From Limisphaerales bacterium (GTDB taxonomy: Bacteria; Verrucomicrobiota; Verrucomicrobiia; Limisphaerales; UBA1096): a stretch of DNA of 64,000 nt. The position numbers and the translations under genes were made by a program. Of this stretch, positions 4,093 through 56,778 are shown piece by piece (position 1 is the stretch's first letter; each line of letters opens with the position of its first letter). The stretch lies in NCBI GenBank assembly GCA_004213515.1, contig SHAK01000001.1, forward strand, positions 86,359-150,358, read 5' to 3'. Under the pieces are notes generated by a model, which worked only from the letters and a program-made list of their open reading frames with translations, did no database searches and was not told the DNA's origin.

Positions 4093-4095
4093 TTC

Positions 4096-21651: not shown

Positions 21652-23172
21652 TTATTTAATAAATTTAAATGAAAATAAGTCTGCATCTTTCAATTCAAAG
21701 ACTAATTTGATTCCTTGGTCTGAAAGAGAACTCACTTTATAACTTAACCCGTCAGAACGAGTCCACTCTACAATTCTGTTTAACGAATCTCCATAAATCC
21801 ATGGACAATTTTCTATCTCATATCCAGAAATGTAATTCCCATCTGCACCAAGAATACCAACACGAATACCCCCTCGGGCTGAACTTGAATAATTAATAGA
21901 CAATTTATGACCAGAAAATTGTATCAGTTTAGTAGTTAACTTGCCTCCTTTCATAGGAGCAGTAATTGAAACAAACCCATCCATTCTTATTGAATATCTT
22001 CTAAGTTTTGCTGGTTTTCCGTTTTGTAAAGTCGCTTCAGTTAAGTACATTGAAAGCTCTGAAGGAGCATCTTCTGCAAGCGAGGATTTGGTTTCAACTA
22101 ATCCATTATTTTGATAATTATCGCCATAAAACCAACTGTCTTTAGCCCTTAATCCTGGACGGATAAAAGCCTCTTGGAAAACTGTAAAATTATTTCCATC
22201 TCTACTACTCATAAAAAGCCCCTCAGTAACAGCTGTTCCTTCCCTTATAGAAACTTTACTTCGTTGCTGTCGATATTCCCATTGTGGCAAATGACGCGTC
22301 GATGGAGTTAATCCTCTATCTTCATATCGTGTTGGAAATCCAACAAAAATATGCGGAGCCCTGAAATAAGGTGTAATCTGATTAGTATAAAGCTCACCTC
22401 CTCTTTCAGGGGTGTATTCCAAGAAAACTGGCTTTTTCCAACTATCCGTAAAAGAGGGGGAAGTCTCTGTCATGATGTCTCGACCATTTCTAAACTCCCG
22501 ATGATATGCTCTATACTCTCTCCTGACTGAGTCCCAAAAAGCAAGATTTTGCGAATCAAAGGCACCTTGAGAAATTATTGGTTTCTTTGTCGCCTTTTTC
22601 CAAAGAATTCCGTCGGCGGACACTAAAGGAAACAAAGGCCCCCCACCTATGGCTTTATATTTTTCGCTAATTGAAGCTTCAGGATTCAGATCAATAAAAG
22701 GACTAAAATTATGACATATGTAGCCTAATACAGGATCTTTTTCTGTAAGTATAATATTGTTTGCCTTTGACCCTTTAAACTCAACCAGCCCTAAATCCGG
22801 CCTCCTCCATTTAATCCCATCTTTACTCACAGCAAGGCAGTAAAACTGGTCATGCAAAGATTTCACACCTCGATCATAGTCGGCACCTCTATAATACATT
22901 TTATAGCTGTTTTTCGAATCTTTTATGACTGTTACATAGTTTAATCCGTTACCCTCCCAAGGCTTATCGCTAACAAAAACAATTTCTCTAGGAATAGGAT
23001 TATTTAGAGATTGCCTAGCAAAACCTTCAAGTTTCTCAATTAGATGATTATCTACAAAAAGTTCTCTTCGGTCATCAACCTTAAGTACATTAAAATTTGC
23101 TTTAGTTGAAACTAACCCATAAAGAACGAACAGAAACAGGCAATTAAATATCTTTATATTTTTCACAATCAT
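21652..23172 (-). CDS. Secreted BNR/Asp-box repeat beta-propeller protein (putative sialidase-like glycosidase)
   Basis: A signal peptide is present, and two Asp-box motifs SxDGxxW are visible (AVSKDGIKW, VSADGILW). Length is 506 aa. Confidence 0.6.
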   Translation of the reverse strand: MIVKNIKIFNCLFLFVLYGLVSTKANFNVLKVDDRRELFVDNHLIEKLEGFARQSLNNPIPREIVFVSDKPWEGNGLNYVTVIKDSKNSYKMYYRGADYDRGVKSLHDQFYCLAVSKDGIKWRRPDLGLVEFKGSKANNIILTEKDPVLGYICHNFSPFIDLNPEASISEKYKAIGGGPLFPLVSADGILWKKATKKPIISQGAFDSQNLAFWDSVRREYRAYHREFRNGRDIMTETSPSFTDSWKKPVFLEYTPERGGELYTNQITPYFRAPHIFVGFPTRYEDRGLTPSTRHLPQWEYRQQRSKVSIREGTAVTEGLFMSSRDGNNFTVFQEAFIRPGLRAKDSWFYGDNYQNNGLVETKSSLAEDAPSELSMYLTEATLQNGKPAKLRRYSIRMDGFVSITAPMKGGKLTTKLIQFSGHKLSINYSSSARGGIRVGILGADGNYISGYEIENCPWIYGDSLNRIVEWTRSDGLSYKVSSLSDQGIKLVFELKDADLFSFKFIK

Positions 23173-26007: not shown

Positions 26008-27285
26008 TTAGGATAGTAAGCCTTTTAATGGTCCAGTACTATCAGCAAAACGCTCCATACCTGTGCCCATTAATTGAGCTTGAGAGAGCCATAAATTGGC
26101 CAGTGGAGTTTTTTCAGGACAATTAAGAATGTGGCCAGTCTTGATACGTCCGTTAGCAGAACCTGCTACAATAATTGGAAGCTCATCCATTGTGTGGTCT
26201 TTACCATCTCCTAACCCTGAACCTAAAGTAATCATAGAGTGGTCTAAAAGAGTTCCTTCCCCCTCCTTAATCGAGTCCAACTGCTCTAAAACTTCCGCAA
26301 ATAACTCCACATAAAAGCGGTCAACTTGCGAAAGAGCCTTCTTTACGTCTTGTCTGTCTTGCGAATGGGTAAGTCCATGATGTGATTTCGTAAAATTTAA
26401 TTCATGAAAACGCTGTGGAGTTCCCCACCTTTCCGGTGCGAGCATGAACGTTGCAACGTGTGTAAGATCTCCTTGAAATGCCAGCACAAGCAATTTGCCC
26501 ATCATCCTTATGTACTCTCCACGCGTCATCGGCTCTTCATCCGGCTCTTTCATATCCGGCCGCTCATGCGTTGCGTAGTACTTGCTTAGCTTCTCAATCT
26601 GTTTTTCGATTTCTCTAACAGAAGTGAAGTATTCATCTAGCTTGTCTTTATCATGACTACTCAGATTCTTTTCAAAATTGGAAGCATCCTGCAGAATCAA
26701 ATCCGTAATATCCTTGTCGGATTTTCCCGTCTTAAAGAGACGCTTATAAACCTGCCGCGGATCTTTGATTGTCGTAGCTACATGTTCAGGCCCGTACCAG
26801 GAAATGTTGTCCAAATAAATCGATTCTTTGAGGTCTTTAAACGTATTACAATTCAGCTCCAAGGATCGAATAGGGGTTCGGTGGCTTACCTTATCTGCAA
26901 TCAAATGATCCAAGGTTCTGTCCATAGGGTAAGGTGATTTCAGCTCCCCATTAGGATTGGCTGACGAGAGGTAACATGAACTACATTGATTATGTACATC
27001 GACCCCTCTAACGTTAACCCGGGACAAACCTGTGATGAGTGTAACTTTTTTCCCCACTTTTTTAAGTGGTCTCAAAGTGGGCATCTCCAAAAAGTTTTGA
27101 TTACCCTTCTCAGGGAAAAAATGATCTCGCACAAAACCCATTGGCGAATAGAACGAAGCAAAACGCAGAGACGGGTCCTTTAATTTCTTTGTCAACGCAT
27201 CCTCTGCATACATCTCCAACCAAGGAAGGGCCATCACACCGCCTGCCGTCCCAAACAAAAACTTGCGCCTATCAATTTGATTCAT
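26008..27285 (-). CDS. DUF1552 family protein with a twin-arginine signal
   Basis: The N-terminus MNQIDRRKFLFGTAGGVMALPW is a Tat motif. The start overlaps the stop of the upstream DUF1592-type gene by 4 nt. Confidence 0.8.
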   Translation of the reverse strand: MNQIDRRKFLFGTAGGVMALPWLEMYAEDALTKKLKDPSLRFASFYSPMGFVRDHFFPEKGNQNFLEMPTLRPLKKVGKKVTLITGLSRVNVRGVDVHNQCSSCYLSSANPNGELKSPYPMDRTLDHLIADKVSHRTPIRSLELNCNTFKDLKESIYLDNISWYGPEHVATTIKDPRQVYKRLFKTGKSDKDITDLILQDASNFEKNLSSHDKDKLDEYFTSVREIEKQIEKLSKYYATHERPDMKEPDEEPMTRGEYIRMMGKLLVLAFQGDLTHVATFMLAPERWGTPQRFHELNFTKSHHGLTHSQDRQDVKKALSQVDRFYVELFAEVLEQLDSIKEGEGTLLDHSMITLGSGLGDGKDHTMDELPIIVAGSANGRIKTGHILNCPEKTPLANLWLSQAQLMGTGMERFADSTGPLKGLLS

Positions 27286-29912
27286 TGTTTCATCTTTTGG
27301 CTAAATACTAAGTGAACCGCCGTGTGTTTAATAAGGTCTCTCAATTTGTAATTATTACTCTCGCTCGCTTTCACAATTTCATCAACCGCAACTCGTTCCG
27401 ATACGATTAACTCTCGCCCTAAACCATAGGACAACAAATGCTTGGTGAAAGCCTTTGCAAACACGTCTTTTTCAGCAAGTACAGCATCCTTAAACCCAAC
27501 AACGTCTTTGAAAGGGTGCTTCCCGAATAATACACCACTAGCATCAACCTTCAAGCCCGTTCGGTACGTGTCTCTCCAGCGACCTAGTAAATCATAATTT
27601 TCCAAAGCAAACCCCAATGGATCAATTTTTTGATGGCAACCAGAGCATTGGGAGTCTTCGCTATGCCGATTTAATTTTTGCCTTACTGTTAGCCCCTCTT
27701 TTTCAAGTGTTGCGTCATCCGCATTTAAGTCAGGAATATTGTCAGGCGGGGGCTCCGGAGGATCATTGAAAATGACCGAGGAAACCCACGACCCTCGTGT
27801 GATAGGTAATGATCGAAATGGACCGGATGTCATCACCATCACGGCTCCCGTTGTAATCACACCACCGAACCTTCTATCTTTAAGTGGAGTTCGAGTGAAT
27901 TCAATATCACGAAGGTTGACGTTTATGGCATATGTAGCAGCTCTTCCTTGGTACCATTCTTCAAGTAAGTGACTGCGATAGGTGAAGTCTGAATCGACTA
28001 ATTCCATAATTGGCCTGTTCTCAATAAAAACAGTTTCAAAGTTTAGTAGCGGTTCCAACATCATATGCATCCCTCTCTTGTATGATATTTTGTCGTCGCC
28101 ACCGAAGTAGTAATTTCTATGAGTTTTGAAATCAGGTGATGCGGAAACTAAGTTGTTAATCCTTAGCCATTGAGGGGCAAAACTATCGCAGAAGTTTTTA
28201 ATACGACGATCGTTGAGCATCCGATCAACCTGGGCTTCGAGGACTTGTGGGTCTTGAAGCTTCCCTTCCCCTGCTAATGCCAATAACTCGTCATCAGGAA
28301 TCGAGCTCCACAGAAAAAATGAAAGGCGTGTCGCCAAATTATATGAAGCATGATTAGGCAAGTCGTCACTTGCCTTGTTGTGAACCATAATAAACCGCGG
28401 AGAAGCCAATACCCCTGATACTACATCCTTCATGCTTTTGGTGAAATCCCCACTTTCCTTATACTGCTTATCAAAATATTCCGTGTACAAATTTAAGGTT
28501 TTTGCATCGGCTGGAGACCTAAAAGCCCTGAGAAGAAATTCCCGAATGCGCTTATGAGCTATTACTTCAATCGGCTGATTCAGTTCTGGTTTAACATCAT
28601 TCTTGCGTTTCCAGCTCCCCACCATTTCCTCTTTGGCGACATCTTGTTTGCCCTTCGCTATCTCCTCAATCTGGGGCTTACTAAGCCCTGATCGAAACAA
28701 TCGAACATCATTAAGATCCCCGTGAAAAACTTCCTTCTGATGATACGATCCGATCTCCATCGGCTCCATACTCTGAGTGTAAAGCTTGCCCACAACCGCC
28801 TTACTCCCGACCTGCTTCCCATCCAAATAGAGATTCATTTCCTTCCCATCGAAGGTCCCAGCAACGTGATGCCACTTGCCATCTCCAAGGTAACTTGGTT
28901 TCACTGGGGCGCCGAATTCCACATATTGGCCTTCAATGCCCGCACCCATCCAAATTCCCCAAGTTCCATCTGTGTCGCCAATCGCCAATAACTGGCGCCT
29001 CCACGAATCCTCGCGACGAACAATGGTCTGCCAATTTTTAGTTACTTTTGTTGGGCGAATCCAAGCACTAATAGTCAGCCCCGTGCTATGCGTCGCGACG
29101 GATTTATCTGCGTTAATAAATCCAAATCCCTGGATCAATGGCTTCTGTGATGGATCCTGAAATAGATCATTCCAAATCTGACAGTTTTTATCAAAATTCT
29201 CAGCATTCACAACGGACCGACTAAGTTCCAAAAAGGCCTCCATGAGCGTTGGCGTCATACTGAGATGATCGCCGCGATTGTTGAACCCGTTTTCTGCGGG
29301 AGGATCTTTTGGAAATGCCATAACCCCCAGCAACCGATTCTCCAACATCTGCTGAAGCCCCATAATTCGATTACCCACTCTTGCGACTTTGGGCATTTTG
29401 CCGGTTTCGGGCCTGAAATAATTATTATGATCTCTAATGATTCGATCATTGATCGAGTAAACCCACGACTTAAGATCGAACAAGTCTCTTACAGCATTAC
29501 CGTATTCAAAACGATTCATCCGCCTAAGACTAAGTGGGGCGGCAGGGGTGCTATGAGCCATAGCATTTTTAAATGCATTCTCCAGCTCAATTAACATTAC
29601 TTTGCGCTGGTAAGCACTAGGCTGATTTTCCTCTTCGGGAGGCATTTCATTTTTATTCAATGCCTCGATCATTTTTTCAATGAGCTCTGGATTCTTTTCG
29701 AGATCCGCCCATGATTGGTAATCGGTTAGCTTGACCTTGCCTTTAGATTTTTTGATTCCATGGCAGTCGTAGCAATATTCTTTCAGAATTGGTACAATAC
29801 TTTTGTCAAAGTCATTAGCATATGCAGAAGGTTCTTGGGCCATAACCGAAGATGAGCAGGCTATAAATGCAAATAACATAAAACTAATAGCAGCGGGTGA
29901 ATTATATTTCAT
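27282..29912 (-). CDS. DUF1587/DUF1592/DUF1595/DUF1588-type protein with an N-terminal planctomycete cytochrome-c-like CxxCH and a LamG/concanavalin-like insert
   Basis: A signal peptide is followed by CYDCHG near the N-terminus. A LamG-like block (LTISAWIRP...GDLNDVRLF) is present, along with a conserved C-terminal Cys motif CSGCHQKIDPLGFALENYD. Length is 876 aa. Confidence 0.8.
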   Translation of the reverse strand: MKYNSPAAISFMLFAFIACSSSVMAQEPSAYANDFDKSIVPILKEYCYDCHGIKKSKGKVKLTDYQSWADLEKNPELIEKMIEALNKNEMPPEEENQPSAYQRKVMLIELENAFKNAMAHSTPAAPLSLRRMNRFEYGNAVRDLFDLKSWVYSINDRIIRDHNNYFRPETGKMPKVARVGNRIMGLQQMLENRLLGVMAFPKDPPAENGFNNRGDHLSMTPTLMEAFLELSRSVVNAENFDKNCQIWNDLFQDPSQKPLIQGFGFINADKSVATHSTGLTISAWIRPTKVTKNWQTIVRREDSWRRQLLAIGDTDGTWGIWMGAGIEGQYVEFGAPVKPSYLGDGKWHHVAGTFDGKEMNLYLDGKQVGSKAVVGKLYTQSMEPMEIGSYHQKEVFHGDLNDVRLFRSGLSKPQIEEIAKGKQDVAKEEMVGSWKRKNDVKPELNQPIEVIAHKRIREFLLRAFRSPADAKTLNLYTEYFDKQYKESGDFTKSMKDVVSGVLASPRFIMVHNKASDDLPNHASYNLATRLSFFLWSSIPDDELLALAGEGKLQDPQVLEAQVDRMLNDRRIKNFCDSFAPQWLRINNLVSASPDFKTHRNYYFGGDDKISYKRGMHMMLEPLLNFETVFIENRPIMELVDSDFTYRSHLLEEWYQGRAATYAINVNLRDIEFTRTPLKDRRFGGVITTGAVMVMTSGPFRSLPITRGSWVSSVIFNDPPEPPPDNIPDLNADDATLEKEGLTVRQKLNRHSEDSQCSGCHQKIDPLGFALENYDLLGRWRDTYRTGLKVDASGVLFGKHPFKDVVGFKDAVLAEKDVFAKAFTKHLLSYGLGRELIVSERVAVDEIVKASESNNYKLRDLIKHTAVHLVFSQKMKQ

Positions 29913-30269
29913 TTTACGTTAATTTCATAATGACATACTTATGATATAAATTTCTCACCACAGATTAGGCAAAGAATAGTTGAGCCTGCCGAATCCTTTT
30001 TTTGCCTCTAAATTTCTCCCCGCAGTTTGGGTAAGAGAATTTCAAAGGTTTTTATTGGTTAAGAAAAAACATTCCTCATTTTATAACTAAACTTCAAGCT
30101 CCATTCGTAAAGTTTTTAAAGAGAAATCGAGGCAAGAAGAAGGGGGAGTGCTGGGATATTTTTTAATGTAGATAAAAAATAAAGCTATTAGCCAATGTAG
30201 CATAATTTATAAAGCCTTCCTAATTTACGGCTCAAAGCTTGAAATATTTTAATATGTATATTATTATTT
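29913..30269. promoter_or_regulatory. AT-rich divergent intergenic region, presumed to hold promoters for the NfeD-flotillin-ATPase operon (+) and the DUF1592/DUF1552 operon (-)
   Basis: The 357-bp non-coding gap lies between divergently oriented operons. No specific -35/-10 assignment was attempted. Confidence 0.3.
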
Positions 30270-30944
30270 TTGAAATTCATAATCGTGAGTGAAATCATTT
30301 CAAACTTTCTACCACTATGGCAAGAATCTATAACGGGTGTAAACCTTCCTGCTACCTTGCTATTTGGAATAATTTTAATTTTTTGGATTTTTAATATTAT
30401 CGGAGTTTTGGGGACAGAATTATTGGACTTCCTGATTCCGGTGGATTTTGGCTCGATTGATATCCCGATACTATCTGGGGATACATTTGCCGGGATATTC
30501 GATTTCTTTTATATTGGCAAGGTCCCGCTGGTGATACTATTTAGTGTGTTTGGATTTGTTTTTTGGCCCACCTGCATTTTATCAAATTACTATCTTAATC
30601 CAGAAAAAACTTGGGGGATCGGGCTTATAGTTTTGGGACTAGGATCGATTGCTTCCATTTTCGCAATGAAACTTTCGCTAATGCCTTTTGAACGTTTCTT
30701 CGAATCAATTGCGAAGTTAGATGAATTGGATTCGCCTGATGCATTCCTTGGAAAAATTTGTACAATCAGGAGCCCGAAAGCAGACGAAAAGTTTGGCCAA
30801 GCTGAGATCGAAAATCCGGATGGAGCTCCGTTTTTGTTTAATGTAAAGCCCACCCGGGAAGGCGAGGTCCTAAAGCGAGGTGAATCTGCTGTAATTGTGG
30901 ATATAAAAGACAAAATTTTTAGTATTAAAAAAATAGATATTTAA
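30270..30944 (+). CDS. NfeD-like membrane protein (N-terminal TM helices plus a C-terminal OB-fold beta-barrel), the canonical partner of SPFH/flotillin proteins
   Basis: A hydrophobic N-terminal half is followed by a C-terminal segment (GKICTIRSPKADEKFGQAEI...GEVLKRGESAVIVDIKDKIFSIKKI) typical of the NfeD beta-barrel. The start is non-ATG: TTG at 30270, or possibly GTG at 30286. Confidence 0.72.
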   Translation: MKFIIVSEIISNFLPLWQESITGVNLPATLLFGIILIFWIFNIIGVLGTELLDFLIPVDFGSIDIPILSGDTFAGIFDFFYIGKVPLVILFSVFGFVFWPTCILSNYYLNPEKTWGIGLIVLGLGSIASIFAMKLSLMPFERFFESIAKLDELDSPDAFLGKICTIRSPKADEKFGQAEIENPDGAPFLFNVKPTREGEVLKRGESAVIVDIKDKIFSIKKIDI

Positions 30945-30959
30945 AAAAAAGATAAAAAA

Positions 30960-33041
30960 ATGATAAATATTACAACAATAGGTAACATGCTTACTAATGT
31001 TTCAATCATTGGTGGAGTTGGTGCGGTGATCATATTTTTTGGCCTTCTTGCGATCGCAGTTCGATGCATGAGAAAAGTAGAACCTGGCACTGTAGGTGTT
31101 CGAACAGGAATTGGAGGAATAACGGTTAGAGACTCTTGGTGCGTGGTTCTTCCCCTTATTCACAAGTACGATATCATGGATATTTCAGTTAAACGGTTAG
31201 AAATAAACCGGCAGGGGACTGACGGCTTGATCTGTCAGGATAATCTGCGTGCTGACATTACTGTAGCTTTTTACATAAGGGTGGACAAACCTCAGGCACA
31301 GGAAGTAGCTCAAGCAGTAGGATGCGATAGAGCATCAGAAATTGACCAACTCAGACAACTGTTTGAGGCTAAGTTTTCTGAAGCCCTAAAGACCGCAGGC
31401 AAGCAATTCGAATTCACTTCTCTCTACACAGAGCGAGATCAATTCAAACAGTCTATTCTTGAGGTGATTGGTAAGGATTTAAATGGCTACCATTTAGAAG
31501 ATTGCGCCATTGACTACCTAGAACAGACTCCGCTGGACAAGATGGATGCCAACAACGTTTTGGATTCGATAGGTATCAAATTAATTAACGGAGTGACAGC
31601 GAAACAAGCGGAAGAAGCTAACCAGATTTTACGAAATAAAGAGAAGGAGATTAAACGACAGGATGTTGAAGCTACGGAGGCTATCCTTCAACTTGATAAA
31701 CAAAAAGCAGAAGCCGAAGAGCAACAAAAACGAGAGATTGCGACCATTACAGCACGTGAGGTAGCCGAAGCCAATAAAGTCACCGAAGAAGAACGATTGA
31801 AGGCGGAATCAGCAAGAATCAATACCGAACAGGAGCTCGGAGTAGCGGAGGAAAACAAGCAGCGGCAAATCATTGTAGCGCAGAAGAACCGTGAAAGAAC
31901 ACAGGCAATTGAAACTGAACGGGTAGAAAAAGACAGGTTACTTGAGGTTACCGAAAGAGAACGAATTGTAACTTTGGCCAACATCGAGAAGGAAAAAACT
32001 ATCGAAACAGAACAAAAGAACATTCAAGAGGTTATCCGGGAACGGGTTGAGCTTGAAAAAACGGTTGTCGTTGAAAAAGAAAAAATTAAAGACACAGAAT
32101 CGTTTGCTACTGCTGATCGTGAAAAACGTGTTTTAATAACTAAGGCAGAAATGCAAGCAGAAGAAGCTTTGGTAAAAGATATTAAAGCTGCTGAGGCTGA
32201 AAAGAAATCAGCTGAATTAGAAGCAGAACAGGAGAAGTATAAGCAAGTTCTTGCTGCTGAAGGAGCCAAAGAAGCAGCTGAGATGAAAGCCGATGAAATT
32301 ATGATTGCAGCAGATTCTGAGGAAAAAGCTGCCACAAAACTTGCAGCAGCCAAGAAGAGCGAAGCATCTGGAGTCACTGCACTGGATGCCGCAGCAGGAT
32401 TAGCTCAAGCTAATGTCATTTCCGCAAAAGCAGAGGCCAAGGAGAAAGATGGAACGGCTGAAGCAAATGTGATGGAGCTGAAATTTCAAGCAGAGGCTAA
32501 AGGTATTATAGAAAAGGCAGAGGCAATGAAGATCTTTGACGGTGTTGGCCGCGAACATGAAGAATTCAAGTTGAACCTGAATAAGGACAAGGAAATCGAA
32601 TTAGCTCAGATCGAAGTCCACAAGGATATTGCGGAACAGCAAGCTCTCATAGTTGGGGAAGCTCTCAAAAGTGCTAACATCGATATTGTTGGTGGCGATA
32701 GCGTGTTCTTTGACAAGATCACTAATGCTATAACTCAGGGCAAATCAGTCGATCGCTTAGCAAAAAACAGCCAAGTTATTACCGATGTAAAAGATACGTT
32801 TTTTAATGGTGACCCTGATTATTTTAAACAAAAACTTACTGATTGGGCTGGGGATTTCGGAATTACAAGTGACTCGATAAAGAACCTGACAATCTCTGCA
32901 CTCATCGGGCAAATGATTAGCGAATCAAAAGACTCGGGAAAAACCTCAATTTTAAAACAGGCTCTAGAAATGGCAGCGAATTTTGGTATCGCAGACAATC
33001 CTGCCAATTCGGTGATCAATTTACCTAATTCTGAAAATTAA
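30960..33041 (+). CDS. Flotillin-family SPFH/Band-7 protein with an extended Ala/Glu-rich coiled-coil
   Basis: An N-terminal TM anchor is followed by an SPFH core (GTVGVRTGIGGITV...) and then about 350 aa of EA-rich heptads. At 693 aa it exceeds the roughly 500 aa typical of bacterial FloT/YqiK. It starts 15 nt after the NfeD-like gene. Confidence 0.9.
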   Translation: MINITTIGNMLTNVSIIGGVGAVIIFFGLLAIAVRCMRKVEPGTVGVRTGIGGITVRDSWCVVLPLIHKYDIMDISVKRLEINRQGTDGLICQDNLRADITVAFYIRVDKPQAQEVAQAVGCDRASEIDQLRQLFEAKFSEALKTAGKQFEFTSLYTERDQFKQSILEVIGKDLNGYHLEDCAIDYLEQTPLDKMDANNVLDSIGIKLINGVTAKQAEEANQILRNKEKEIKRQDVEATEAILQLDKQKAEAEEQQKREIATITAREVAEANKVTEEERLKAESARINTEQELGVAEENKQRQIIVAQKNRERTQAIETERVEKDRLLEVTERERIVTLANIEKEKTIETEQKNIQEVIRERVELEKTVVVEKEKIKDTESFATADREKRVLITKAEMQAEEALVKDIKAAEAEKKSAELEAEQEKYKQVLAAEGAKEAAEMKADEIMIAADSEEKAATKLAAAKKSEASGVTALDAAAGLAQANVISAKAEAKEKDGTAEANVMELKFQAEAKGIIEKAEAMKIFDGVGREHEEFKLNLNKDKEIELAQIEVHKDIAEQQALIVGEALKSANIDIVGGDSVFFDKITNAITQGKSVDRLAKNSQVITDVKDTFFNGDPDYFKQKLTDWAGDFGITSDSIKNLTISALIGQMISESKDSGKTSILKQALEMAANFGIADNPANSVINLPNSEN

Positions 33042-33089: not shown

Positions 33090-36000
33090 ATGTCAGAAGA
33101 AGATGCAGAGCAAACAGTGTCTACCGAGGTAAAGCCTGCCTTGGAGGGAGGCACCTACGAAATCATCAAGCAACGGTTGCTGAAACAGGCAGGCGAATTA
33201 AAAAAGAAAGTCCAGCAACTTGATGAATTAAGGAAGAGTGTATTCGGGTCGGTTCCGATGGCTCTGAAAAAAGCGGAAAGAATCACGACAGAACACAATT
33301 GTATACCTCGGGATATGATCCGGGCTGTAAGTGATACTTTTATATTTGGTTATAATGTGCAATTCGGCTTAAAGACATCGGTTCAAATCAGTGATGTTTT
33401 TGCTATCTTTGATTATAAAGACGAAGCATTTCACCCCCTAAGCCTAGAACCACTAAAAAGTGGCCAATTCGAGCAGGATTTCGCTAATCTATATAAGTAC
33501 TACAAAGAAACTAAATTTGTTAAGTTTTCACAAATAGGCCCGTTTCTTTTTATGGTTTTTCGTGTTGGCAAAAACGTTACTGACATCAAAACATTCAAAT
33601 GGGCAATTCAGAACGGAGAATTACATTACGTCGATAACCGAAGCGATCATGAGTTTGTATTTCCAGATCAATACCAATTTGAATGGGTCAGAACGCATAG
33701 GGATTTGCATCGTTTTGGAGAACATCCTCACGTCTCAATTGAAGATACTGTATTTGTGGAATGTATCGGGGGTGACCTAACGATTAAAATTGAGGATAAC
33801 ACTGACTCTGGGTCGGGAATTTTGTCTGAAGAGGTCGAGTTTAAGGATCAAACTCTGGACGATGCAGAAATCTTTTTTGCTAAGATTGGCCAAATCATTC
33901 TGTTAAAAATTAGACCATTTCAGGAAAAAGAATTCAGATACTTTGTTTACAATAATAAGTTACGTGAGGTTCATCGGTTTGATGCTCTAAAAGATGCATG
34001 TTGCATACTTCCAGAAGGCCATGGCGTGATTGTTCCCAACGGCTATTATTTGATCAACGGACAAATTAAAATTTACGAAAATGATCTGACAGAGATGATG
34101 TTCGAACGAATGGTCAGTTCTCCTAATGGGGAAGATTACATGTATGTTTTTTATAACAGATTACAGGGTAATTATACCATTTTGCCATATAACATCATCT
34201 CTCAAAATGTAGACAATCCAATTTATTGTAATGGCTTTTCTCTATTTAAAAACGGGGAGTTGACTTACTTCCGAATGGATGATGAACCCCAAAAACATCA
34301 TGTTGCGCAAATCTGGCAAACTCCCTTTACACTAGAGGAGCTTAACAGCGAAACCAACAAGGACCACTTTTTATATCAAATCGGAAATAGGGATGTAGTT
34401 CGCTGTATGGCAGAATGCAGTGAAATATTAAATCTCGCGACTCGAGACTCAACATACGACGAATTGTATATAGACTTGGTCAAACGGTCTCAAGATGTAG
34501 TTGAGTCCTATTTCTGGATTGATAACGATGGACTAAATGGAATCGTAGATTGCATTAATCAAATAAAGGAGACTTCAGGCCAAGCTATAGATGAATTCAA
34601 CAAAGTAAACCGTCTTAAAAAGGAGGCAATCGAAAGGCTCAAAGCTGTAGAAACTAAGACTAAAGAGATTTTTAATGAGATTAGTCGGAGCGAGTTTGCG
34701 CTCATTGACGATTTTGTTTCTAGATTGGCCGAACTAAGAAAGATTCGTGGAGAAATCATATCTCTTCGGGATGTCCCATATGTTGACCTGGAAAGGGTGA
34801 ATACATTTGAGGAAACTGTTTCAAGCAAGACACTGCAGCTTTCTGAATCTTGTGTTGATTTTTTGTTAAAAGAAGAATCCTTGAATCCATATCGAGATCA
34901 CGTGGCTCAACTAAAGGGATCGCTTGGAAATATTACAAAGGTCACAGAGGGAAATGAACTTGTTGAAAATGTAAGCGAAGCCGGTAACGAGTTGGAAATG
35001 CTTATCGACATCGTTAACAACTTGAAAATTGAAGACTCAACGCAAGCGACAAGAATCATCGACCAAATTACGGAGATCTTCACTTCAATTAATCAGTTAA
35101 AAGTTGCTGCCAACAAGAAAATCAAGGAGTTGCATGGTGTTGAAGGTAAAGCACAATTCGCAGCACAAATAAGGCTCATAAGTCAGTCAGTCGTAAGTTT
35201 TTTAGACCTTTGTGACTCCCCTGAAAAATGCGATGAATATTTGAATAAACTCATGGTTCAACTTGAGGAACTCGAAGGTTCCTTTGCTGATTTCGATGAG
35301 TTTATTATAGAGATTGCAGACAAAAGAACCGAAGCATATGAAGCGTTTGAAGCTAGAAAATTAAACCTCATAGAAAGCCGTAATAAAAAAGCGGTATCTT
35401 TGGTTTCATCAGCTGAACGCATATTAAAGGTTATCAGCAACCGTGTTGAAGGATTCGATTCCATTAACGATATCAACGGATATCTGGCTGCTGATTTGAT
35501 GGTCGAAAAGATACGCGGCATCATAGATAATCTAAATTCACTCGGAGATTCTGTAAAAGCGGATGATATTCAAGGGCGACTTAAAACCATACAACAGGAT
35601 GGGATTCGTCAGTTAAAAGATAAAAAAGAGCTGTTTCAGGATGGGGAAAATATTATCAGATTCGGAAAGCATAAGTTTTCGGTTAACACTCAGGATCTAG
35701 ATTTAACTATTCTCAGCCATGACGGTGATATGTGTCTTCATCTAACAGGCACAAAATTCTTTAGTAGCATTAAAAATCCAAAATTTCTGGAAACAAAAGA
35801 TGCTTGGGCACAGGATATCATTTCAGAAAATCGCGATGTCTATAGATCCGAATACTTGGGCTATCAAGTGCTATTATGGCTTGAGCAAAACGGCAGTATT
35901 AGCATCGAAGAATTCCTAAAATTAAATGATGCAGAAAGATTGAAAACGGTTCAGGATTTCATGGCTCCCCTTTACGCTGAATCCTATACCAAGGGTATTC

Positions 36001-38675
36001 ATGATCAAGACTCCTTAAAAATTCTGGAAGCCTTAACTACTATTTATAAAGCACAAAAACTGGCCCGCTATTCTCCAACTGCCCGGGCCTGCGCTTTAGT
36101 TTATTGGAACTTGTTTTGCCCAGCTGAATTAAAGTCACTTTGGCAGGCAAAACTTGAGGCTTTTCAGGAGAAAAACACACTCTTCCCTGGGCTTCAATTA
36201 AATACATTATATGTAGATGAGATTGAGAAATTAATCAGTGATTTTACAGTAGAAGAAAGAATATTTGACCAATCCTTGACGCGTGAATCAGCAGAGTACC
36301 TTTTTCATGAAGTTGCAAATGGCAAAGGGCAAGTCATCAGTAAGGAAGGAGCTGAACTAATAAATGGTTTCAACGCACACCTGAAGAAAACCAACAAGGA
36401 ATTGAATTATGAAAAATCCATAAAACCGCTCGAAAATTACCCTCGTAATAAATATCTAGTGATTCGGGACTGGGCTTCAGGATTCGTCAGGTCTACTGGG
36501 AATGAAGAACTTATTCAATACGAGGAGGAACTCACTAGTTTATTGTTACTTAATCATTACGATACGAGATTTATTGTTAACGAATCTAATTCCAAAGAAA
36601 TAAAAAACATGGCCGGGTCGCATCCGGTTATAGTGGACGATTGCTACCATCTTGATTTTCATAAGTTTCAAAACAAACTGAAATTTTTTGCGGATCAGTC
36701 CGTTCCGAAATATGCGAAGTATTTGGAATTAAAATCCAAAGTCATAGAAGATGGTCGGAAAGATTTAAGATTAACAGAGTTCCAGCCAAAGGTTCTTACC
36801 TCGTTTGTGCGCAATAAACTCATTAATGAAGTTTTTCTTCCAGTTATAGGTGACAACTTGGCAAAGCAACTTGGTGCGGCCGGTGATAGCAAGCGCACAG
36901 ACTTAATGGGATTGCTACTACTAATCTCTCCACCAGGTTATGGTAAAACCACTTTAATGGAATATATTGCCAATCGAATGGGCTTAATTTTTATGAAAAT
37001 TAATGGCCCAACTGTTGGCCATGAAGTCACTTCTTTGGATCCCAGTGAAGCCGGAAATGCTGGAGCTAGAGAGGAAGTTCAGAAACTAAACTTGGCTTTG
37101 GAAATGGGTGACAACGTAATGATTTATTTGGATGACATTCAGCATTGTAATCCAGAATTTCTTCAGAAATTCATTTCGTTATGTGACGCCCAGAGAAAGA
37201 TTGAGGGAGTGTGGGAAGGCCGACCTAGAACATATGATCTTAAAGGAAGAAAAGTAGCCGTGGTAATGGCCGGTAATCCATATACTGAAAGCGGTGAGAA
37301 ATTTAAGATCCCCGACATGCTATCTAATCGGGCAGATACATACAATTTGGGCGACGTCGTTGGGGGTAATGCAAATGCCTTCAAGGCTAGTTATATTGAA
37401 AACGCCGTCACTTCCAACCCTGTATTACAACAGCTCTCGAATAAGAGCCAAAAAGACATTCAAACATTCATTGAAATTGGTGAAACCGGTTCGAGAGAAG
37501 CGGCAAATTTTGAATCCAATTATTCTGTGGCAGAAATTAATGAGATTGTCTCTGTAATGCAAAAAATGGTTATTGTTCGGAATTTTCTTTTGGATGTTAA
37601 TTTAGAATATATTCGATCCGCTGCCATGGCAGATGAGTTCAGAACTGAGCCGAGATTCCAGCTTCAAGGATCCTATCGAAACATGAATCGGCTCGCGGAA
37701 AAAATATTACCTATTTTAAACGACCAAGAGGTCGATGAATTAGTCATTGATCACTACAAAAGCGAATCTCAAACACTGACTACAGGAGCGGAAGCAAATC
37801 TACTGAAATTCAAGGAAATGTTCTCCCTTTTATCTCAAGAAGAAGAGGTTCGATGGAATGAAATCAAAAAGACTTTTAAGAGAAATCAATTATTAGGTAG
37901 CACAGATCAAAGTGATCCTGTCGGTCGTGTTGTCGCGCAGTTGACTTCATTTCAAGAAGGACTGGGGTCTATACAAACTACCCTTGAGCAAAAACTAAAC
38001 CCAGAAAAGACTAAAGATTTATCAATAGACCTTAATCCGCTTGTTGAGCAATTGGGATGCATAGGTGAAAAGTTAGCATCATCAATGGCCAACAGTGTTG
38101 AAGGGAATCTAAAAAAAAATGAGCAGCAAGTCAGCTTAGAATTAACCAGCGAAATTAATAATAAATTCGAATTAATCAAAAAAGAGATTCTTAATTTAAA
38201 GAATGATATTCGTGATGCTAATCAAGAGCAAAAAAATACCGATCAGCCAATTTTAAAATCATCCGAAGTAGAAGAGAAATTCAAAAAACTTAATGATGGT
38301 TTAACGAACATCAAAGCGAAAATTGAAAAATTTCCAAATGATGAATTAGGAAAATTCAAAGACGAATTTGAAAAACAGTTGAACACTAAACTTGAGCCAA
38401 TAACGAAGAACATAGACGAGATCAAAAATTTACATCAAGAAGAGTGGCCCAAAGAACTTGAATTGAAGGGCAAACAAGTCGAAAAGATTGAACAGTTGGT
38501 CATGGAGATTTCTTCTTTGGTTTCTCAAAAGCCTTCCTCCGTTCCAGCAATACTCAGGGCATTGATTAACAAGTACGATCTAGATTCGAAAGGTAACCCC
38601 GAAAAGAACAAATCTTCGGACCAAGTCAAGAATGACAGTAAGCTCAAGGAAGTGCTTGAGCGTTTCAAAAAATAG
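33090..38675 (+). CDS. Giant 1861-aa protein with a single central AAA_5-type (dynein/midasin/MoxR/McrB-clade) P-loop ATPase domain; the N-terminal ~1280 residues are unassigned, and the C-terminal region is a Lys/Glu-rich coiled coil
   Basis: Walker A GYGKTT lies at 36936-36953 (residues 1283-1288) and Walker B IYLDD at about 37125-37136. The following DIQHCNPEFLQKFISLCDAQRKIEGVWEGRPRTYDLKGRKVAVVMAGNP mirrors the AAA_5 pattern (hhhDEInra..v...L..ll.e.r.....g.......F.liATmNP). The gene starts 48 nt after the flotillin stop. Confidence 0.85.
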   Translation: MSEEDAEQTVSTEVKPALEGGTYEIIKQRLLKQAGELKKKVQQLDELRKSVFGSVPMALKKAERITTEHNCIPRDMIRAVSDTFIFGYNVQFGLKTSVQISDVFAIFDYKDEAFHPLSLEPLKSGQFEQDFANLYKYYKETKFVKFSQIGPFLFMVFRVGKNVTDIKTFKWAIQNGELHYVDNRSDHEFVFPDQYQFEWVRTHRDLHRFGEHPHVSIEDTVFVECIGGDLTIKIEDNTDSGSGILSEEVEFKDQTLDDAEIFFAKIGQIILLKIRPFQEKEFRYFVYNNKLREVHRFDALKDACCILPEGHGVIVPNGYYLINGQIKIYENDLTEMMFERMVSSPNGEDYMYVFYNRLQGNYTILPYNIISQNVDNPIYCNGFSLFKNGELTYFRMDDEPQKHHVAQIWQTPFTLEELNSETNKDHFLYQIGNRDVVRCMAECSEILNLATRDSTYDELYIDLVKRSQDVVESYFWIDNDGLNGIVDCINQIKETSGQAIDEFNKVNRLKKEAIERLKAVETKTKEIFNEISRSEFALIDDFVSRLAELRKIRGEIISLRDVPYVDLERVNTFEETVSSKTLQLSESCVDFLLKEESLNPYRDHVAQLKGSLGNITKVTEGNELVENVSEAGNELEMLIDIVNNLKIEDSTQATRIIDQITEIFTSINQLKVAANKKIKELHGVEGKAQFAAQIRLISQSVVSFLDLCDSPEKCDEYLNKLMVQLEELEGSFADFDEFIIEIADKRTEAYEAFEARKLNLIESRNKKAVSLVSSAERILKVISNRVEGFDSINDINGYLAADLMVEKIRGIIDNLNSLGDSVKADDIQGRLKTIQQDGIRQLKDKKELFQDGENIIRFGKHKFSVNTQDLDLTILSHDGDMCLHLTGTKFFSSIKNPKFLETKDAWAQDIISENRDVYRSEYLGYQVLLWLEQNGSISIEEFLKLNDAERLKTVQDFMAPLYAESYTKGIHDQDSLKILEALTTIYKAQKLARYSPTARACALVYWNLFCPAELKSLWQAKLEAFQEKNTLFPGLQLNTLYVDEIEKLISDFTVEERIFDQSLTRESAEYLFHEVANGKGQVISKEGAELINGFNAHLKKTNKELNYEKSIKPLENYPRNKYLVIRDWASGFVRSTGNEELIQYEEELTSLLLLNHYDTRFIVNESNSKEIKNMAGSHPVIVDDCYHLDFHKFQNKLKFFADQSVPKYAKYLELKSKVIEDGRKDLRLTEFQPKVLTSFVRNKLINEVFLPVIGDNLAKQLGAAGDSKRTDLMGLLLLISPPGYGKTTLMEYIANRMGLIFMKINGPTVGHEVTSLDPSEAGNAGAREEVQKLNLALEMGDNVMIYLDDIQHCNPEFLQKFISLCDAQRKIEGVWEGRPRTYDLKGRKVAVVMAGNPYTESGEKFKIPDMLSNRADTYNLGDVVGGNANAFKASYIENAVTSNPVLQQLSNKSQKDIQTFIEIGETGSREAANFESNYSVAEINEIVSVMQKMVIVRNFLLDVNLEYIRSAAMADEFRTEPRFQLQGSYRNMNRLAEKILPILNDQEVDELVIDHYKSESQTLTTGAEANLLKFKEMFSLLSQEEEVRWNEIKKTFKRNQLLGSTDQSDPVGRVVAQLTSFQEGLGSIQTTLEQKLNPEKTKDLSIDLNPLVEQLGCIGEKLASSMANSVEGNLKKNEQQVSLELTSEINNKFELIKKEILNLKNDIRDANQEQKNTDQPILKSSEVEEKFKKLNDGLTNIKAKIEKFPNDELGKFKDEFEKQLNTKLEPITKNIDEIKNLHQEEWPKELELKGKQVEKIEQLVMEISSLVSQKPSSVPAILRALINKYDLDSKGNPEKNKSSDQVKNDSKLKEVLERFKK

Positions 38676-38919: not shown

Positions 38920-40260
38920 TTATTTAAAAACCAATGTTCGAATAATCTTACCATTTCTATCCCATTCATAAACTTGCCCGTTTTCCGAACCTCCAAAGAA
39001 CCTCTTACCATCAGTTGTTACATCAAGGCTATAAATAAGGTCTTTAGCTTTAGCCCATGTTTTCACTGGACTCTTACTTGCCTCACTACAAAGCCGTAAA
39101 GCTCCATCATCACTGGCTGTAATTAATTCTGTGTTATTAGCAGGCCAAACAACTGCTGCAACATTACCTGGGTGACCTGTAACAAGATTTTTTTGCTCGC
39201 GAGTTTCAATATCCCAAATTTTTAATTCCTTATCAGCAGCTCCACTGGCTAAAGATTTACCATTAGGCTTAAAAGCAAGACTCATAATAGGAGCAGAATG
39301 AGCCTCAATTTGTTTTAGCTGATTCCCATCAATCAAATTCCAAAAGCGAATAAGTTTATCTTCCCCAGCAGTGGCTAAGTATTCTCCGTCTGGAGACAAA
39401 GTTATATCGTAAATAGTGCCATTATGTGCCGACCATTCTATTACATTATTCAAGTCTTCAGAATTCCATATAGATATTTTACTTTTTTCCCCTGACGCAT
39501 TACTGGCAGAAATCAGTGATCTAGAGTCGGCACTAAAAGCAAGTGCTGTAACTCGCCCTGGCAATTCTTCTATCTCTCCAAATAACAACCAATCTTTAGT
39601 ATCCCACAAGTTCACTTTTCTAAACCCTCCGGTAGCTAATAGTTTCCCATCTGGACTCCAAGCAATCGACTGAACCGCATCTTTATGACCATTAAGTTTT
39701 TTTCTAAGCAATGTCTTTGTAGATAAATTATTAACAACCACCCGGTTGCCGTACGCAGCAGCAAGTTGTTGATCATCAGGGGAAAGCGTCAGTGCAAATA
39801 CTGGTCGATAATCATTTGGAAGATCTCCCAATTCGGAGGAAGCAACTATCCTATTTTCGATATCAAGCTCACTTGTGATCCAAGTTGGACCATCAAGAAT
39901 CCACTGACTTAAGATATTAATCTCATCATCACTCAATTGTTGTTTAGGTGGCATGTGAGGGTCGCTGATTGGTTTGATTAAACGAATAATCCTGCTTTCA
40001 TCAGGACTACCATCAATAAATGCAGAACCTTCTAGCCCCCCAATACGCGCTGTTTGATATGTAGTAAGATCGAGTTTTCCCTTACTTTTTTTTGGATTAT
40101 GGCAATTAACACAATGGTCACGCAAGATATGCATAGCATTTATAGCCAAATCGGAATCTTCCAAATCTTTAGCATTAGTATTTTCCAAATTAAATAATGC
40201 CAGCACAACGGCAATTACCCTTGCAACGGAAAAAAGTAATTGGATTATTAATAATCTCAA
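38920..40260 (-). CDS. Secreted WD40 beta-propeller protein with an N-terminal planctomycete cytochrome-c-like (PSCyt1) CxxCH domain
   Basis: A signal peptide is followed by CVNCHNPKKSKGKLDL. Repeated WD motifs occur (e.g. AWSPDGKLLATGG) and the protein is 446 aa long. Confidence 0.8.
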   Translation of the reverse strand: MRLLIIQLLFSVARVIAVVLALFNLENTNAKDLEDSDLAINAMHILRDHCVNCHNPKKSKGKLDLTTYQTARIGGLEGSAFIDGSPDESRIIRLIKPISDPHMPPKQQLSDDEINILSQWILDGPTWITSELDIENRIVASSELGDLPNDYRPVFALTLSPDDQQLAAAYGNRVVVNNLSTKTLLRKKLNGHKDAVQSIAWSPDGKLLATGGFRKVNLWDTKDWLLFGEIEELPGRVTALAFSADSRSLISASNASGEKSKISIWNSEDLNNVIEWSAHNGTIYDITLSPDGEYLATAGEDKLIRFWNLIDGNQLKQIEAHSAPIMSLAFKPNGKSLASGAADKELKIWDIETREQKNLVTGHPGNVAAVVWPANNTELITASDDGALRLCSEASKSPVKTWAKAKDLIYSLDVTTDGKRFFGGSENGQVYEWDRNGKIIRTLVFK

Positions 40261-53756: not shown

Positions 53757-56700
53757 ATGCGGCAATATGGTTTAAACAATCCTTTTTCAAGATTCATTTT
53801 ATTTGCAATCGGAATAACGGGGACTATTTCAATTCATTCTGCTGATTTCGATCAAGACATAGCCCCAATATTTGTTCGAAGTTGTGTCGAGTGCCACAAC
53901 GGTTTTGATCTTAAAGGAAAACTAAACTTGTCTCAGCGCAACTCAGCATTGAAAGGAGGCAAAAGCGGAACACTTATTCTGCCTGGCAAACCAGAAGAGA
54001 GCTTACTGTGGAATAAAATTAAAAATGATGATATGCCTCCAGATAAGCCACTTGATCAAAAAGAAAAAAAACTCGTTCAAGATTGGATTAGTGAAGGTGC
54101 AAATTGGGGAACAAATTTAAAACTGGATCCATTCGAATTCACCACAAAAAAACGTGGTGGTTATGATTGGTGGTCTCTGCAACCGATAAAACGACCTAAT
54201 CAACCAGATATTACAAAGTCAGCCAAATGGGTAGCTAATCCAATCGATGCATTCGTACTAGCCAAACTTAAATCAGCAAAATTAAAACCAAGCAGCCCCG
54301 CTCTGCCTCGAGCATTAATTCGAAGGCTATATTTCGACATTACTGGTCTACCCCCTTCAGCTAAAGAGGTAGCAAAATTTGTTTCTAACCCTACCAATGA
54401 AGCATATAAGAAGATAGTTGACGATCTTCTCAGTTCACCACGTTACGGCGAACGCTGGGGACGCCATTGGTTAGACTTGGCACGCTTCGGTGAGAGTGAC
54501 GGTTTTGAACGTAACAACACAAGAAACAACCTTTGGCCTTACCGAGACTGGGTAATCAAAGCAATAAATGACGATATGCCTTACGACGAATTTGTACGAA
54601 TGCAGATTGCTGGGGATATTCTGAAACCCGGTGATCCAGTGGGACAGAAGTCAGTTGGTTTTCTAGTAGCTGGATTACACAACACTGTTGTAGGTGGAAG
54701 TGAATTCATGAAAAAAACGGCAAGACAGGATGAACTTGAAGAAATCATCGGGACTGTCGGTCAAACTTTTGTCGGATTAACGGTTAATTGTGCCCGCTGC
54801 CATAACCACAAATACGATCCCATTCTACAAAAAGAATACTATCAATTAACATCAGCAATCGCTGGTGTATTCCATGGAGAACGCAATGTCTCAGACCCGG
54901 AACTTGAGCGCCAACGCAAGTCTTTACTGACACAAATAGAATCTTTCAGTAAAGAACTTAAATTAATTGAAAATCAGGGACGTCAGACAGTTATAAACAA
55001 ACGAAGTCATGGTAAAGAAACTACTATGCCTAAGCCCCCAAAGCCAATTTCTAGATGGGAGTTTGATAACAACCTTAAAGATAGTATTGGCAATTTGCAT
55101 GGAAAGGCAAAAGGAAGCGCTCGTATTTCAGGTGGCGCCCTTTTAGTTGATGGAAATGAGTCGTGGATTGAAACAAATTCTATTGAGTCATCGTTTCGAT
55201 CCAAAACACTTGAAGCATGGGTTGAGTTAAGCAATTTGAATCAAAAAGGTGGAGGTGTGATTGGGTTACAAAGCCTCAATGGCGCTACATTTGATTCCAT
55301 TGTATTTGCTGAACTTGAAGCGCACCGATGGATGTCAGGTAGTGACGGCCACAGCCGAACTAAATCATTTAGGGCTAAAGAAGAAAATTTCGCGCATCAG
55401 CAGCCGGTGCACATTGCAATTGTTTATCAAGAGGATGGCACCGTTATCGGCTATCGTAATGGAGTCCAATACGGAAAACCTTATAAGACCAATTTACAGG
55501 AATTCTTCAAGGGAAGTTCACAAGTAATTTTTGGTATGCGGCACAAAGGCGGAAGGAATAACTATTTAAAAGGAAAGATTCATCGCGCACAACTTTACGA
55601 CCGAGCACTTGCCCCAAACGAAATCGCTGCCTCAGCAGGAGTTGAATCATCATTCGTAAGCGAATTAGAGTTAGCCGCTGCACTTTCAAAAACAAAAAAG
55701 ACTAAACGTATGGCCCTTAAAGATCAGTTAACTGGACTCCTCGCTCGTCAAAAAGAATTAGGAAAGGGTTCAAAAATGAAGATTTATACAGTTGCCGCTC
55801 GAAGCAACCCCGGCAAAGTGCGCATATTAAAACGAGGAAACGCAATGGATGAAGGCGAAATAGTTCGCCCAGGAGCTGTTTCTGCACTTAGGACATTTAG
55901 TAGTGACTTTGGAATCAAGGCAAACGCTTCTGATAGCGATCGGCGGAAACAGTTGGCTAACTGGATAACGCATCCAAAAAACCCATTATTTAATAGGGTA
56001 ATAGCCAACCGTATTTGGCATTATCACTTTGGAACAGGCTTAGTTGAAACACCCAACGATTTTGGCTTTAACGGAGGTCGCCCGAGCCATCCAGAGTTGC
56101 TGGATTGGCTAGCTTCGGAATTAAAAACCAATGGCCAAAGACTCAAGGGGCTTCATCGATTAATTGTAACTTCAAATACATATCGACAAGCAGCAGCCCC
56201 TCGAGAAGAAGGACTTGCAGTCGATTCAGAAAACCGTCTTTTATGGCGCAAATCACCAGTCAGACTAGATGCTGAATCACTGCGAGATGCAGTTCTTAAA
56301 GTTTCTGGAAAACTTAACTTCAAGATGGGAGGCCCTGGCTTTCGCGATGTTTCAGTTATACCAAACAATGGCACCACTTACTACGAACCAATTTATCCAA
56401 TTGGAAGCGAATACGACCGTCGCACCGTTTACCGATTTAGCCCAAGAGGAGGACGAAGCGCAATTCTTGACACCTTTGACTGCCCTGATCCTTCCACAAC
56501 TGCCCCAAGACGCGCTGTGACTACTACCCCATTGCAAGCACTGGCACTTTTAAATAATAAATTCATTTTAAATAAAGCAGATGCCATGGCAAATCGCTTG
56601 AAGGCACAATCAAACGGAAATAGGGACAAGCAAATTGAACAGGCTTTTCTCAGCGCCTTTCAACGAAATCCAGATTCTGAAGAAATGCTTTTAGCAAAAC

Positions 56701-56777: not shown

Positions 56778-56778
56778 T

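Follow-up and report, generated by a model that had tools for sequence, protein, structure and literature searches.

In the FtsH-HflK/C and m-AAA protease-prohibitin systems, an AAA+ machine works together with a membrane cage of the SPFH family; PspA/IM30 is a member of the ESCRT-III superfamily; and AAA+ proteins of the MoxR type are usually paired with VWA/MIDAS proteins, as in NorQ/NorD, CbbQ/CbbO, and RavA/ViaA. Here we describe a cluster of three genes from a Limisphaerales bacterium (Verrucomicrobiota) that encodes a YqiJ-like protein, a YqiK-like flotillin, and a giant AAA+ ATPase of the DUF3686/DUF7902 family (33090–38675, + strand). The window analyzed is a stretch of 64,000 nucleotides (GenBank assembly GCA_004213515.1, contig SHAK01000001.1, forward-strand positions 86,359 to 150,358), and coordinates are positions in this window unless a related locus is named. 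The ATPase is probably, with considerable room for doubt, an oligomeric, ATP-driven remodeler of flotillin/PspA membrane scaffolds.

The closest published description is a comparative-genomic survey of the phage-shock-protein system that appeared in mSystems in 2024 (Ravi et al.; PMC11237479) and reports an ATPase consisting of a beta-propeller, a coiled coil, and an AAA+ domain in CesT/Tir-PspA-YqiJ/YuaF-flotillin operons (example ANH61663.1, Dokdonia donghaensis). According to the survey, abbreviated operons lacking PspA are widespread, and AAA+ proteins that partner PspA are proposed to carry out ATP-driven remodeling of membrane-bound polymers. Its ATPase has the same order of domains as the window protein and, because Bacteroidota relatives of the window protein occupy that same arrangement, we take the two to belong to one family; the window carries the abbreviated three-gene form of the operon. 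The survey is a description of neighborhoods, without experiments and without residue-level or structural analysis, and the form in the window differs from its full operons in having no PspA, CesT/Tir, or PLD gene. The Escherichia coli yqiJ-yqiK operon carries homologs of the first two genes, in matching order, but E. coli lacks the third, ATPase gene. Our literature search found no paper that names DUF3686/PF12458 or pairs "DNA repair ATPase" with flotillin, and nothing relevant that joins SPFH with MoxR or YqiK with AAA+.

The Flotillin-ATPase Cluster

The ATPase gene is a single unbroken open reading frame (ORF) encoding 1,861 residues, exactly as delimited in an earlier note on this DNA that was made from the sequence alone. 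Alternative-frame and antisense ORFs within it are all shorter than 90 residues, and the + frame is ~50% identical across phyla; because it is this frame that is conserved as protein across phyla, it is reasonable to regard the internal ORFs as artefacts, as the note did for the antisense ones. What the note overlooked is that a flotillin and a YqiJ/NfeD-like protein are encoded directly upstream and are real conserved partners. All three genes lie on the + strand, with intergenic gaps of 15 nt (yqiJ-like gene to flotillin) and 48 nt (flotillin to ATPase).

The flotillin gene (30960–33041, +) encodes a YqiK-like SPFH protein of 693 residues with a single N-terminal transmembrane segment (residues 7–41), an SPFH domain, an E/A-rich helical region, and a conserved C-terminal domain. 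A family profile aligns with E. coli YqiK residues 17–421 (hhalign probability 99.95%, E = 1.2e-37, 31% identity over 390 columns), and homologs are named "flotillin family protein" or "YqiK" by NCBI and JGI. The Pfam Band_7 model misses this subfamily (29 of 29 members), and a profile search of the PDB was also empty. The C-terminal ~230 residues are strongly conserved (...GREHEEFKL...DIVGGD..FFDKI...FFNGDP.YF); no similarity to the YqiK C-terminus was detectable with a single sequence as template. This conserved region could be a candidate docking site for the ATPase.

The yqiJ-like gene (30270–30944, +) encodes 224 residues from a TTG start, with three hydrophobic, putatively transmembrane segments followed by a C-terminal OB-like domain, and is an NfeD-like flotillin partner. 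A 25-sequence family profile aligns with E. coli YqiJ over the whole length (hhalign probability 97.3%, E = 2e-11, 178 columns); Pfam matches are weak and subthreshold (YqiJ_OB, E = 0.011; YqiJ_N, E = 0.022). The hhalign matches to E. coli YqiK and YqiJ identify the cluster as a yqiJ-yqiK pair joined to a giant ATPase gene, with the two upstream products belonging to the flotillin/YqiK and YqiJ/YuaF families. The start at TTG 30270 is the one set mechanically; homologs begin ~12 residues further in, and the true start codon is probably ~12 codons downstream. A promoter-like site with 10 of 12 matches, the best in the region (30239–30310), has its end at 30267; counts from the promoter and terminator scan were not above those of shuffled controls.

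This arrangement is widely kept. Among 63 related loci with enough upstream sequence, which come from Verrucomicrobiota, Planctomycetota, Bacteroidota, Desulfobacterota, Kiritimatiellota, and other phyla, a flotillin gene immediately precedes the ATPase gene in the same orientation in 59, and a YqiJ-like gene is detectable upstream (E < 1e-5) in 44. The flotillins are 55–64% identical across phyla. The ATPase family occurs in at least 585 species-level genomes, including Verrucomicrobiota, Planctomycetota, Bacteroidota, Desulfobacterota, Hydrogenedentota, Kiritimatiellota, and others; it was found in 13 of 72,556 plasmid records, mostly megaplasmids or chromids, and in no phage records. A complete yqiJ-flotillin-ATPase cluster is also present on VLTH01000002.1, a contig labeled "UNVERIFIED_CONTAM: Acetivibrio alkalicellulosi"; the apparent presence of the family in Firmicutes probably reflects contamination and is best left out of its phyletic range. 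At one locus with no upstream flotillin, in a Desulfococcaceae metagenome-assembled genome (L023, 6515–19056), the ATPase gene is followed by genes for a TIR-domain protein and an nSTAND1 NTPase-WD40 fusion, a setting that resembles a defense island.

Several relatives carry extended operons. In Bacteroidota, genes for CesT_Tir_1 (E = 8e-54) and PspA_IM30 (E = 1e-36) proteins precede the operon; PspA is found in eight related loci and CesT in five. Two of these loci (L053, 1306–3532, and L086, 1577–3687, the latter on Hymenobacter plasmid NZ_CP010056.1) have, in addition to the CesT/Tir and PspA/IM30 genes, an upstream divergent gene for a LexA-family regulator (helix-turn-helix plus peptidase S24), which hints at stress-induced regulation of the autocleavage type. 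The Hymenobacter record is annotated, in order, as LexA-like, Tir chaperone, PspA, DUF1449, hypothetical protein, and DNA repair ATPase. On Pseudomonas fluorescens SBW25 plasmid pQBR103 (NC_009444.1, 85112–97641), co-directional genes encode PspA, a rhomboid protease, DUF2491, DUF350, and DUF1190 proteins, glutathionylspermidine synthase, a hypothetical protein of 217 residues in the YqiJ position, an SPFH protein, and a "DNA repair ATPase"; this cluster ties the family to polyamine-associated PspA operons. In Bacillus subtilis, according to PMC8581546, membrane localization of PspA depends on an SPFH protein. The window has the three-gene core of the PspA-associated operon (YqiJ/YuaF, flotillin, and propeller-coiled-coil-AAA+ protein, co-directional) and not the full form with CesT/Tir and PspA. 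In the segment downstream of the ATPase gene (12068–13675 in L004), eight loci have a PLD-like gene (PLDc_2, E = 2e-29), and an ORF of ~250–285 residues belonging to no Pfam family is common to ten loci (L004 and, matched by the 248-residue ORF, L005, L008, L009, L010, L011, L016, L017, L025, and L049).

Domain Architecture of the ATPase

The ATPase (~210 kDa) matches DUF3686 (PF12458) at residues 36–475 (E = 3.1e-176; 586.7 bits against a cut-off of 25; profile positions 1–448 of 448) and DUF7902 (PF25472) at residues 597–680 (E = 3.8e-23; 81.9 bits against a cut-off of 26). Both models score above their gathering thresholds and the AAA domain is in the same chain, which places the protein in the DUF3686/DUF7902 family. 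More than 4,300 clusters at 90% identity match the full-length query, most of them over ~90% of its length at ~50% identity, so that the N-terminal 1,280 residues cannot be called an orphan region, as had been proposed. Homologs are 1,672–1,950 residues long with the same set of domains; matches to the DUF3686 region fall into 697 clusters at 50% identity, and among the 150 of these listed, full-length proteins have ~1,500–2,040 residues and shorter ones look like fragments. Databases name the homologs "DNA repair ATPase" or, in JGI for some of them, "MoxR-like ATPase." Because no hydrophobic or transmembrane segment was found in the protein, it should be cytoplasmic.

An AlphaFold2 model was built with a 70-sequence alignment (mean pLDDT, the model's confidence score, 82.9 for residues 1–1200 and 76.5 for residues 1151–1861); the number of blades, the position of the lid, and the geometry of the rod were read from its secondary-structure strings. 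A disordered start (residues 1–20) is followed by a long N-terminal helix (33150–33245; model helix at residues 21–52, heptad-like segment at 24–55) and by a predicted beta-propeller of about seven four-stranded blades (33258–34334; residues ~57–415; ~28 strands, pLDDT 80–92), which forms the core of DUF3686. Foldseek matches of the N-terminal model are propellers (Elp1, prolyl oligopeptidase, Vps18, CyRPA, and PON1), and DUF3686 is therefore, as modeled, a beta-propeller; the beta-rich N-terminus noticed in the sequence is borne out. A membrane-coat (protocoatomer-like) interpretation, raised by Foldseek matches to clathrin, IFT-A, and Vps18, was rejected: TM-scores are ~0.1 and only the propeller aligns, the helices are long and heptad-like and do not form an alpha-solenoid, and the family is not confined to phyla of the Planctomycetota-Verrucomicrobiota-Chlamydiota (PVC) group.

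Beyond the propeller, the model has a rod or bundle of long helices, 20–58 residues each (34368–35627; residues 427–846), that contains DUF7902 (34878–35129) and includes helices at residues 485–533, 650–707, and 736–786. Heptad-like segments, scored by a simple home-made test with the 99th percentile of shuffled sequences as threshold, fall at residues 471–544, 616–690, 712–745, and 796–831, so the coiled-coil-like rod lies mainly in the middle of the protein and the C-terminus is not its main site. A small beta domain (residues 856–893) and an all-helical domain (residues 919–1154; pLDDT ~90 for residues 970–1154) come next (35655–36551), with no Pfam match or named family for residues 856–1154, and a short linker of beta strands and helix leads to the AAA+ core.

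The alpha/beta core of the AAA+ module (36897–37349; residues 1270–1420) is followed by the lid and a conserved helical extension (37350–37979; residues 1421–1630; conservation 0.6–0.9), with model helices H278–292, H304–316, H330–362, and H379–388 (model numbering; protein residue = +1150). The chain ends in a variable, K/E/N-rich helical tail (37980–38672; residues 1631–1861; K 16.5%, E 13%). In this tail the frequency of the commonest residue is 0.08–0.32, the alignment is rich in gaps, and the length past the RWxxIK motif ranges from 94 to 361 residues among homologs. The low-complexity region is accordingly ~230 residues long and not the ~400 suggested from the composition, conservation being high to about residue 1630. 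Nor is the long C-terminal coiled-coil stalk proposed for it clearly borne out: the tail is modeled as helices of up to 61 residues at low confidence (pLDDT 41–70), and the heptad score passes the threshold only at residues 1686–1748. The K/E-rich stretch quoted in support of the stalk, KFKKLNDGLTNIKAKIEKF, is at residues 1730–1748.

The AAA+ Module

The module has the features of the AAA+ superfamily, namely an alpha-beta-alpha core, a helical lid, Walker A, Walker B, sensor 1, Arg finger, and sensor 2; a placement among ABC, SMC, or RecA proteins, which would have overturned the earlier assignment, is excluded. Conservation was judged in two independent alignments of 70 and 22 sequences. Walker A (GYGKTT, 36936–36953, residues 1283–1288) is where the earlier note had put it and is invariant in both. 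The YLDD recognized at 37125–37136 ends the complete Walker B MIYLDD (37119–37136). Sensor 1 (N1396 in AGNP, 37275–37277), a candidate Arg finger (R1414 in SNRAD, 37329–37331), and sensor 2 (R1530 in QGSYRNM, 37677–37679) are likewise invariant in both alignments; the stretch earlier singled out as a sensor or Arg finger, RKIEGVWEGRPRTYDLKGRKVAVVMAGNP, occupies residues 1369–1397. In the predicted model a pre-sensor-1 beta-hairpin (strands at residues 1370–1375 and 1378–1383; 37197–37238) lies between alpha3 and the sensor-1 strand, and a 33-residue helix (residues 1480–1512) additionally precedes the sensor-2 helix. No helix-2 beta-insert is present in the model, where beta2 (residues 1300–1305) and alpha2 (residues 1324–1339) are joined by a short helix and a conserved coil; the conserved beta2-alpha2 loop, NGPxxGHxVTSLDP, occupies the pore-loop position.

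The sole truly unusual feature of the ATPase is in Walker B. In MIYLDDIQH, D1348-D1349 (37131–37136) and the following IQH are invariant (70 of 70 and 22 of 22 sequences), so that Asp replaces the catalytic Glu of the canonical hhhhDE motif throughout the family. This substitution suggests a slow, switch-like ATPase.

Assignment to AAA_5, the family named in the earlier note, holds in that PF07728 scores above its Pfam cut-off (30.5 bits against 22; positions 2–127 of 139), but it is not exclusive: PF00004 is nearly equal (28.9 bits against 21.2) and is recorded more often than PF07728 among homologs. Foldseek places CbbQ and NorQ first (E ~2e-6), followed by RuvB (4.5e-6), FtsH-like proteins, and Lon. 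In the structural comparison NorQ scores 14.2, midasin 13.8, and CbbQ 13.6, against 13.8 for ClpA and 13.2–13.5 for ClpB, which trail NorQ by only 0.4–1 Z units. Sequence and profile searches of the PDB match only a ~40-residue P-loop stretch from Walker A to beta2 (p97 D1, NSF, Rix7, and RuvB), and NCBIfam gave only RuvB matches, far under the cut-off (21 bits against 282). Identity to the MoxR proteins NorQ, CbbQ, and RavA is only 11–16%; unlike them, the window protein has no VWA partner encoded nearby, carries ~1,270 additional N-terminal residues, has DD in place of DE in Walker B, lacks the helix-2 beta-insert, and in its P-loop half resembles classical AAA proteins (p97 D1) in sequence. 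We conclude that the module is a divergent AAA+ domain of the pre-sensor-1-hairpin superclade, nominally nearest to MoxR/AAA_5 and not a clean member of it.

The single AAA_5 copy, which had seemed anomalous, is ordinary, as one module per chain is normal for homo-hexameric proteins of the MoxR, McrB, and RuvB types. Midasin and dynein, by comparison, have six concatenated AAA_5-type modules; the window protein has one and lacks the linker, stalk, and MIDAS architecture. With a single module, any ring must therefore arise by homo-oligomerization.

Proposed Role

From the domain architecture, the nucleotide-site motifs, the widely kept operon, and the recurrent linkage to PspA, we infer a mechanism of scaffold remodeling. 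The AAA+ modules would assemble into a ring, probably a hexamer by analogy with their relatives; the propeller and helical arms would dock, on the cytoplasmic side of the inner membrane, on the flotillin/YqiJ scaffold and, where PspA is present, on PspA polymers as well; and ATP binding and hydrolysis would drive assembly, disassembly, or remodeling of the scaffold in membrane maintenance or an envelope-stress response. By analogy, the functional precedents would be FtsH, which works within HflK/C cages, and Vps4, whose substrate is ESCRT-III. The likeness to FtsH-HflK/C is mechanistic analogy only, since the window protein differs in lacking a protease domain and a transmembrane anchor, in its AAA+ lineage, and in having an SPFH partner of the flotillin type; for Vps4, the likeness lies in PspA being an operon partner of some relatives. 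A bolder version, in which the protein is a dedicated ATP-driven assembly or disassembly machine for flotillin cages and linked PspA/ESCRT-III-like polymers, with a hexameric ring and six propeller-tipped helical arms gripping and remodeling the SPFH scaffold, is tentative and on balance doubtful. Were it correct, flotillin microdomains would have their first known regulator that consumes energy, and SPFH scaffolds a bacterial equivalent of Vps4 or NSF.

Flotillins have been described as ATP-independent scaffolds with weak mutant phenotypes (e.g., PMC13086221; PMC11222466). A large conserved ATPase genetically tied to the flotillin/NfeD pair, and sometimes to PspA, stands out as a candidate for the active component missing from flotillin systems, and the family as a whole is a good experimental target for bacterial flotillins. 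The family is already in Pfam and the operon has already been described computationally, so the window adds nothing new in kind; the residue-level domain map, the invariant Asp-Asp Walker B, and the synteny in 59 of 63 loci are useful for experiments and for correcting the misleading label "DNA repair ATPase."

Several points weigh against remodeling. Gene order is the sole basis for proposing physical contact between ATPase and flotillin, and four of the 63 relatives (L023, L028, L073, and L081) have no flotillin neighbor. With Asp in place of the Walker B Glu, robust ATP turnover is not assured, and the assignment to an AAA+ clade is marginal. No homologs of PspA, CesT/Tir, or PLD proteins were detected in the window (tblastn, E ≤ 1), and the literature search found no experiment on any member of the DUF3686 family.

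The same Walker B motif would suit a structural tether, in which rod and propeller link flotillin microdomains to another structure and the AAA+ module is a nucleotide-dependent oligomerization switch and not a motor. The ~420 residues of long helices with heptad-like segments and a variable charged tail typical of spacers agree with such a scaffold, which is nevertheless unlikely: strict conservation of sensor 1, Arg finger, and sensor 2 favors a hydrolysis-coupled function, and a conserved loop sits at the pore-loop position. It is quite unlikely that the operon is an anti-phage or conflict system resembling abortive infection, with an NTPase that senses infection and uses flotillin, PspA, or PLD effectors to bring about damage to the membrane or its repair. 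A PLD-like gene does adjoin the ATPase gene in eight loci, L023 is beside TIR and nSTAND-WD40 genes, the family is on a few megaplasmids, and PspA is by name a "phage shock" protein; against this, PADLOC gave no meaningful matches (the best, ZorA at E = 3e-4, is on the low-complexity tail), phage matches are absent and plasmid records few, no variable effector domain is present, all three genes are ~50–60% identical across phyla, unlike fast-evolving defense genes, and the chromosomal context in the window is one of housekeeping genes (sdhAB, proS, sucAB-lpd, bamA, dnaB, and mutS).

The VWA/MIDAS partner that the earlier note expected would make the protein a MoxR-type chaperone that matures or activates a metalloenzyme or complex together with an unlinked VWA protein. 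NorQ and CbbQ as top structural neighbors, the AAA_5 score, and the JGI name are in its favor, yet no VWA domain was found in window ORFs of at least 150 residues or in the recurrent flanks of ~80 related loci; MoxR proteins are ~300 residues long with neither propeller nor rod, and with the small margin over ClpA/ClpB and the absence of the helix-2 insert from the model this role is improbable. Least credible of all is a DNA repair ATPase acting on DNA in the manner of RuvB or of coiled-coil ATPases of the SbcC/Rad50/SMC type. Its grounds are the database names (in Pfam, DUF3686 is "ATPase involved in DNA repair," and NCBI follows suit), weak RuvB_N and RuvB matches confined to the P-loop region, the LexA-family regulator gene adjoining Bacteroidota operons, and mutS, ligA, and dnaB in the window. 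However, Pfam reveals no DNA-binding, nuclease, or helicase domain, the RuvB matches fall far below the NCBIfam cut-offs, the fold is AAA+ and not ABC/SMC, and the conserved neighbors encode membrane proteins and not repair functions, mutS, ligA, and dnaB being 10–20 kb away and not conserved as neighbors. The name appears to be an uncurated legacy annotation.

Genomic Surroundings

The remainder of the window is housekeeping in character and PVC-typical, comprising, beside the genes already named, gene pairs of the DUF1501/1549/1553 type. Downstream of the ATPase gene, a convergent gene (38920–40260, –) encodes a fusion of a planctomycete cytochrome c domain (PSCyt1) with a WD40 beta-propeller; this gene is not among the operon's conserved neighbors. 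Between 16001 and 26000 the G+C content falls to 0.34–0.39, compared with ~0.42 elsewhere in the window, and this segment, which may be foreign or differently evolving, holds genes for an acyltransferase, a 1,059-residue DUF7133/HEAT/cytochrome c protein, esterases, and YaaA, together with an ORF of 506 residues that has no Pfam match (21652–23172, –). An ORF of 380 residues with no Pfam family (13341–14483, +) is situated between two ThuA-like genes (12386–13285 and 14497–15327). The PVC-typical gene-pair sets, whose presence points to a chromosome of Verrucomicrobiota or Planctomycetota, are at 2635–6528 (–), 26008–29912 (–), and 53757–58212 (+); two of the three consist of DUF1549/DUF1553 (PSCyt2/PSD1) with DUF1501, and one of a PSCyt1/PSD-domain plus Laminin_G_3 protein with DUF1552.

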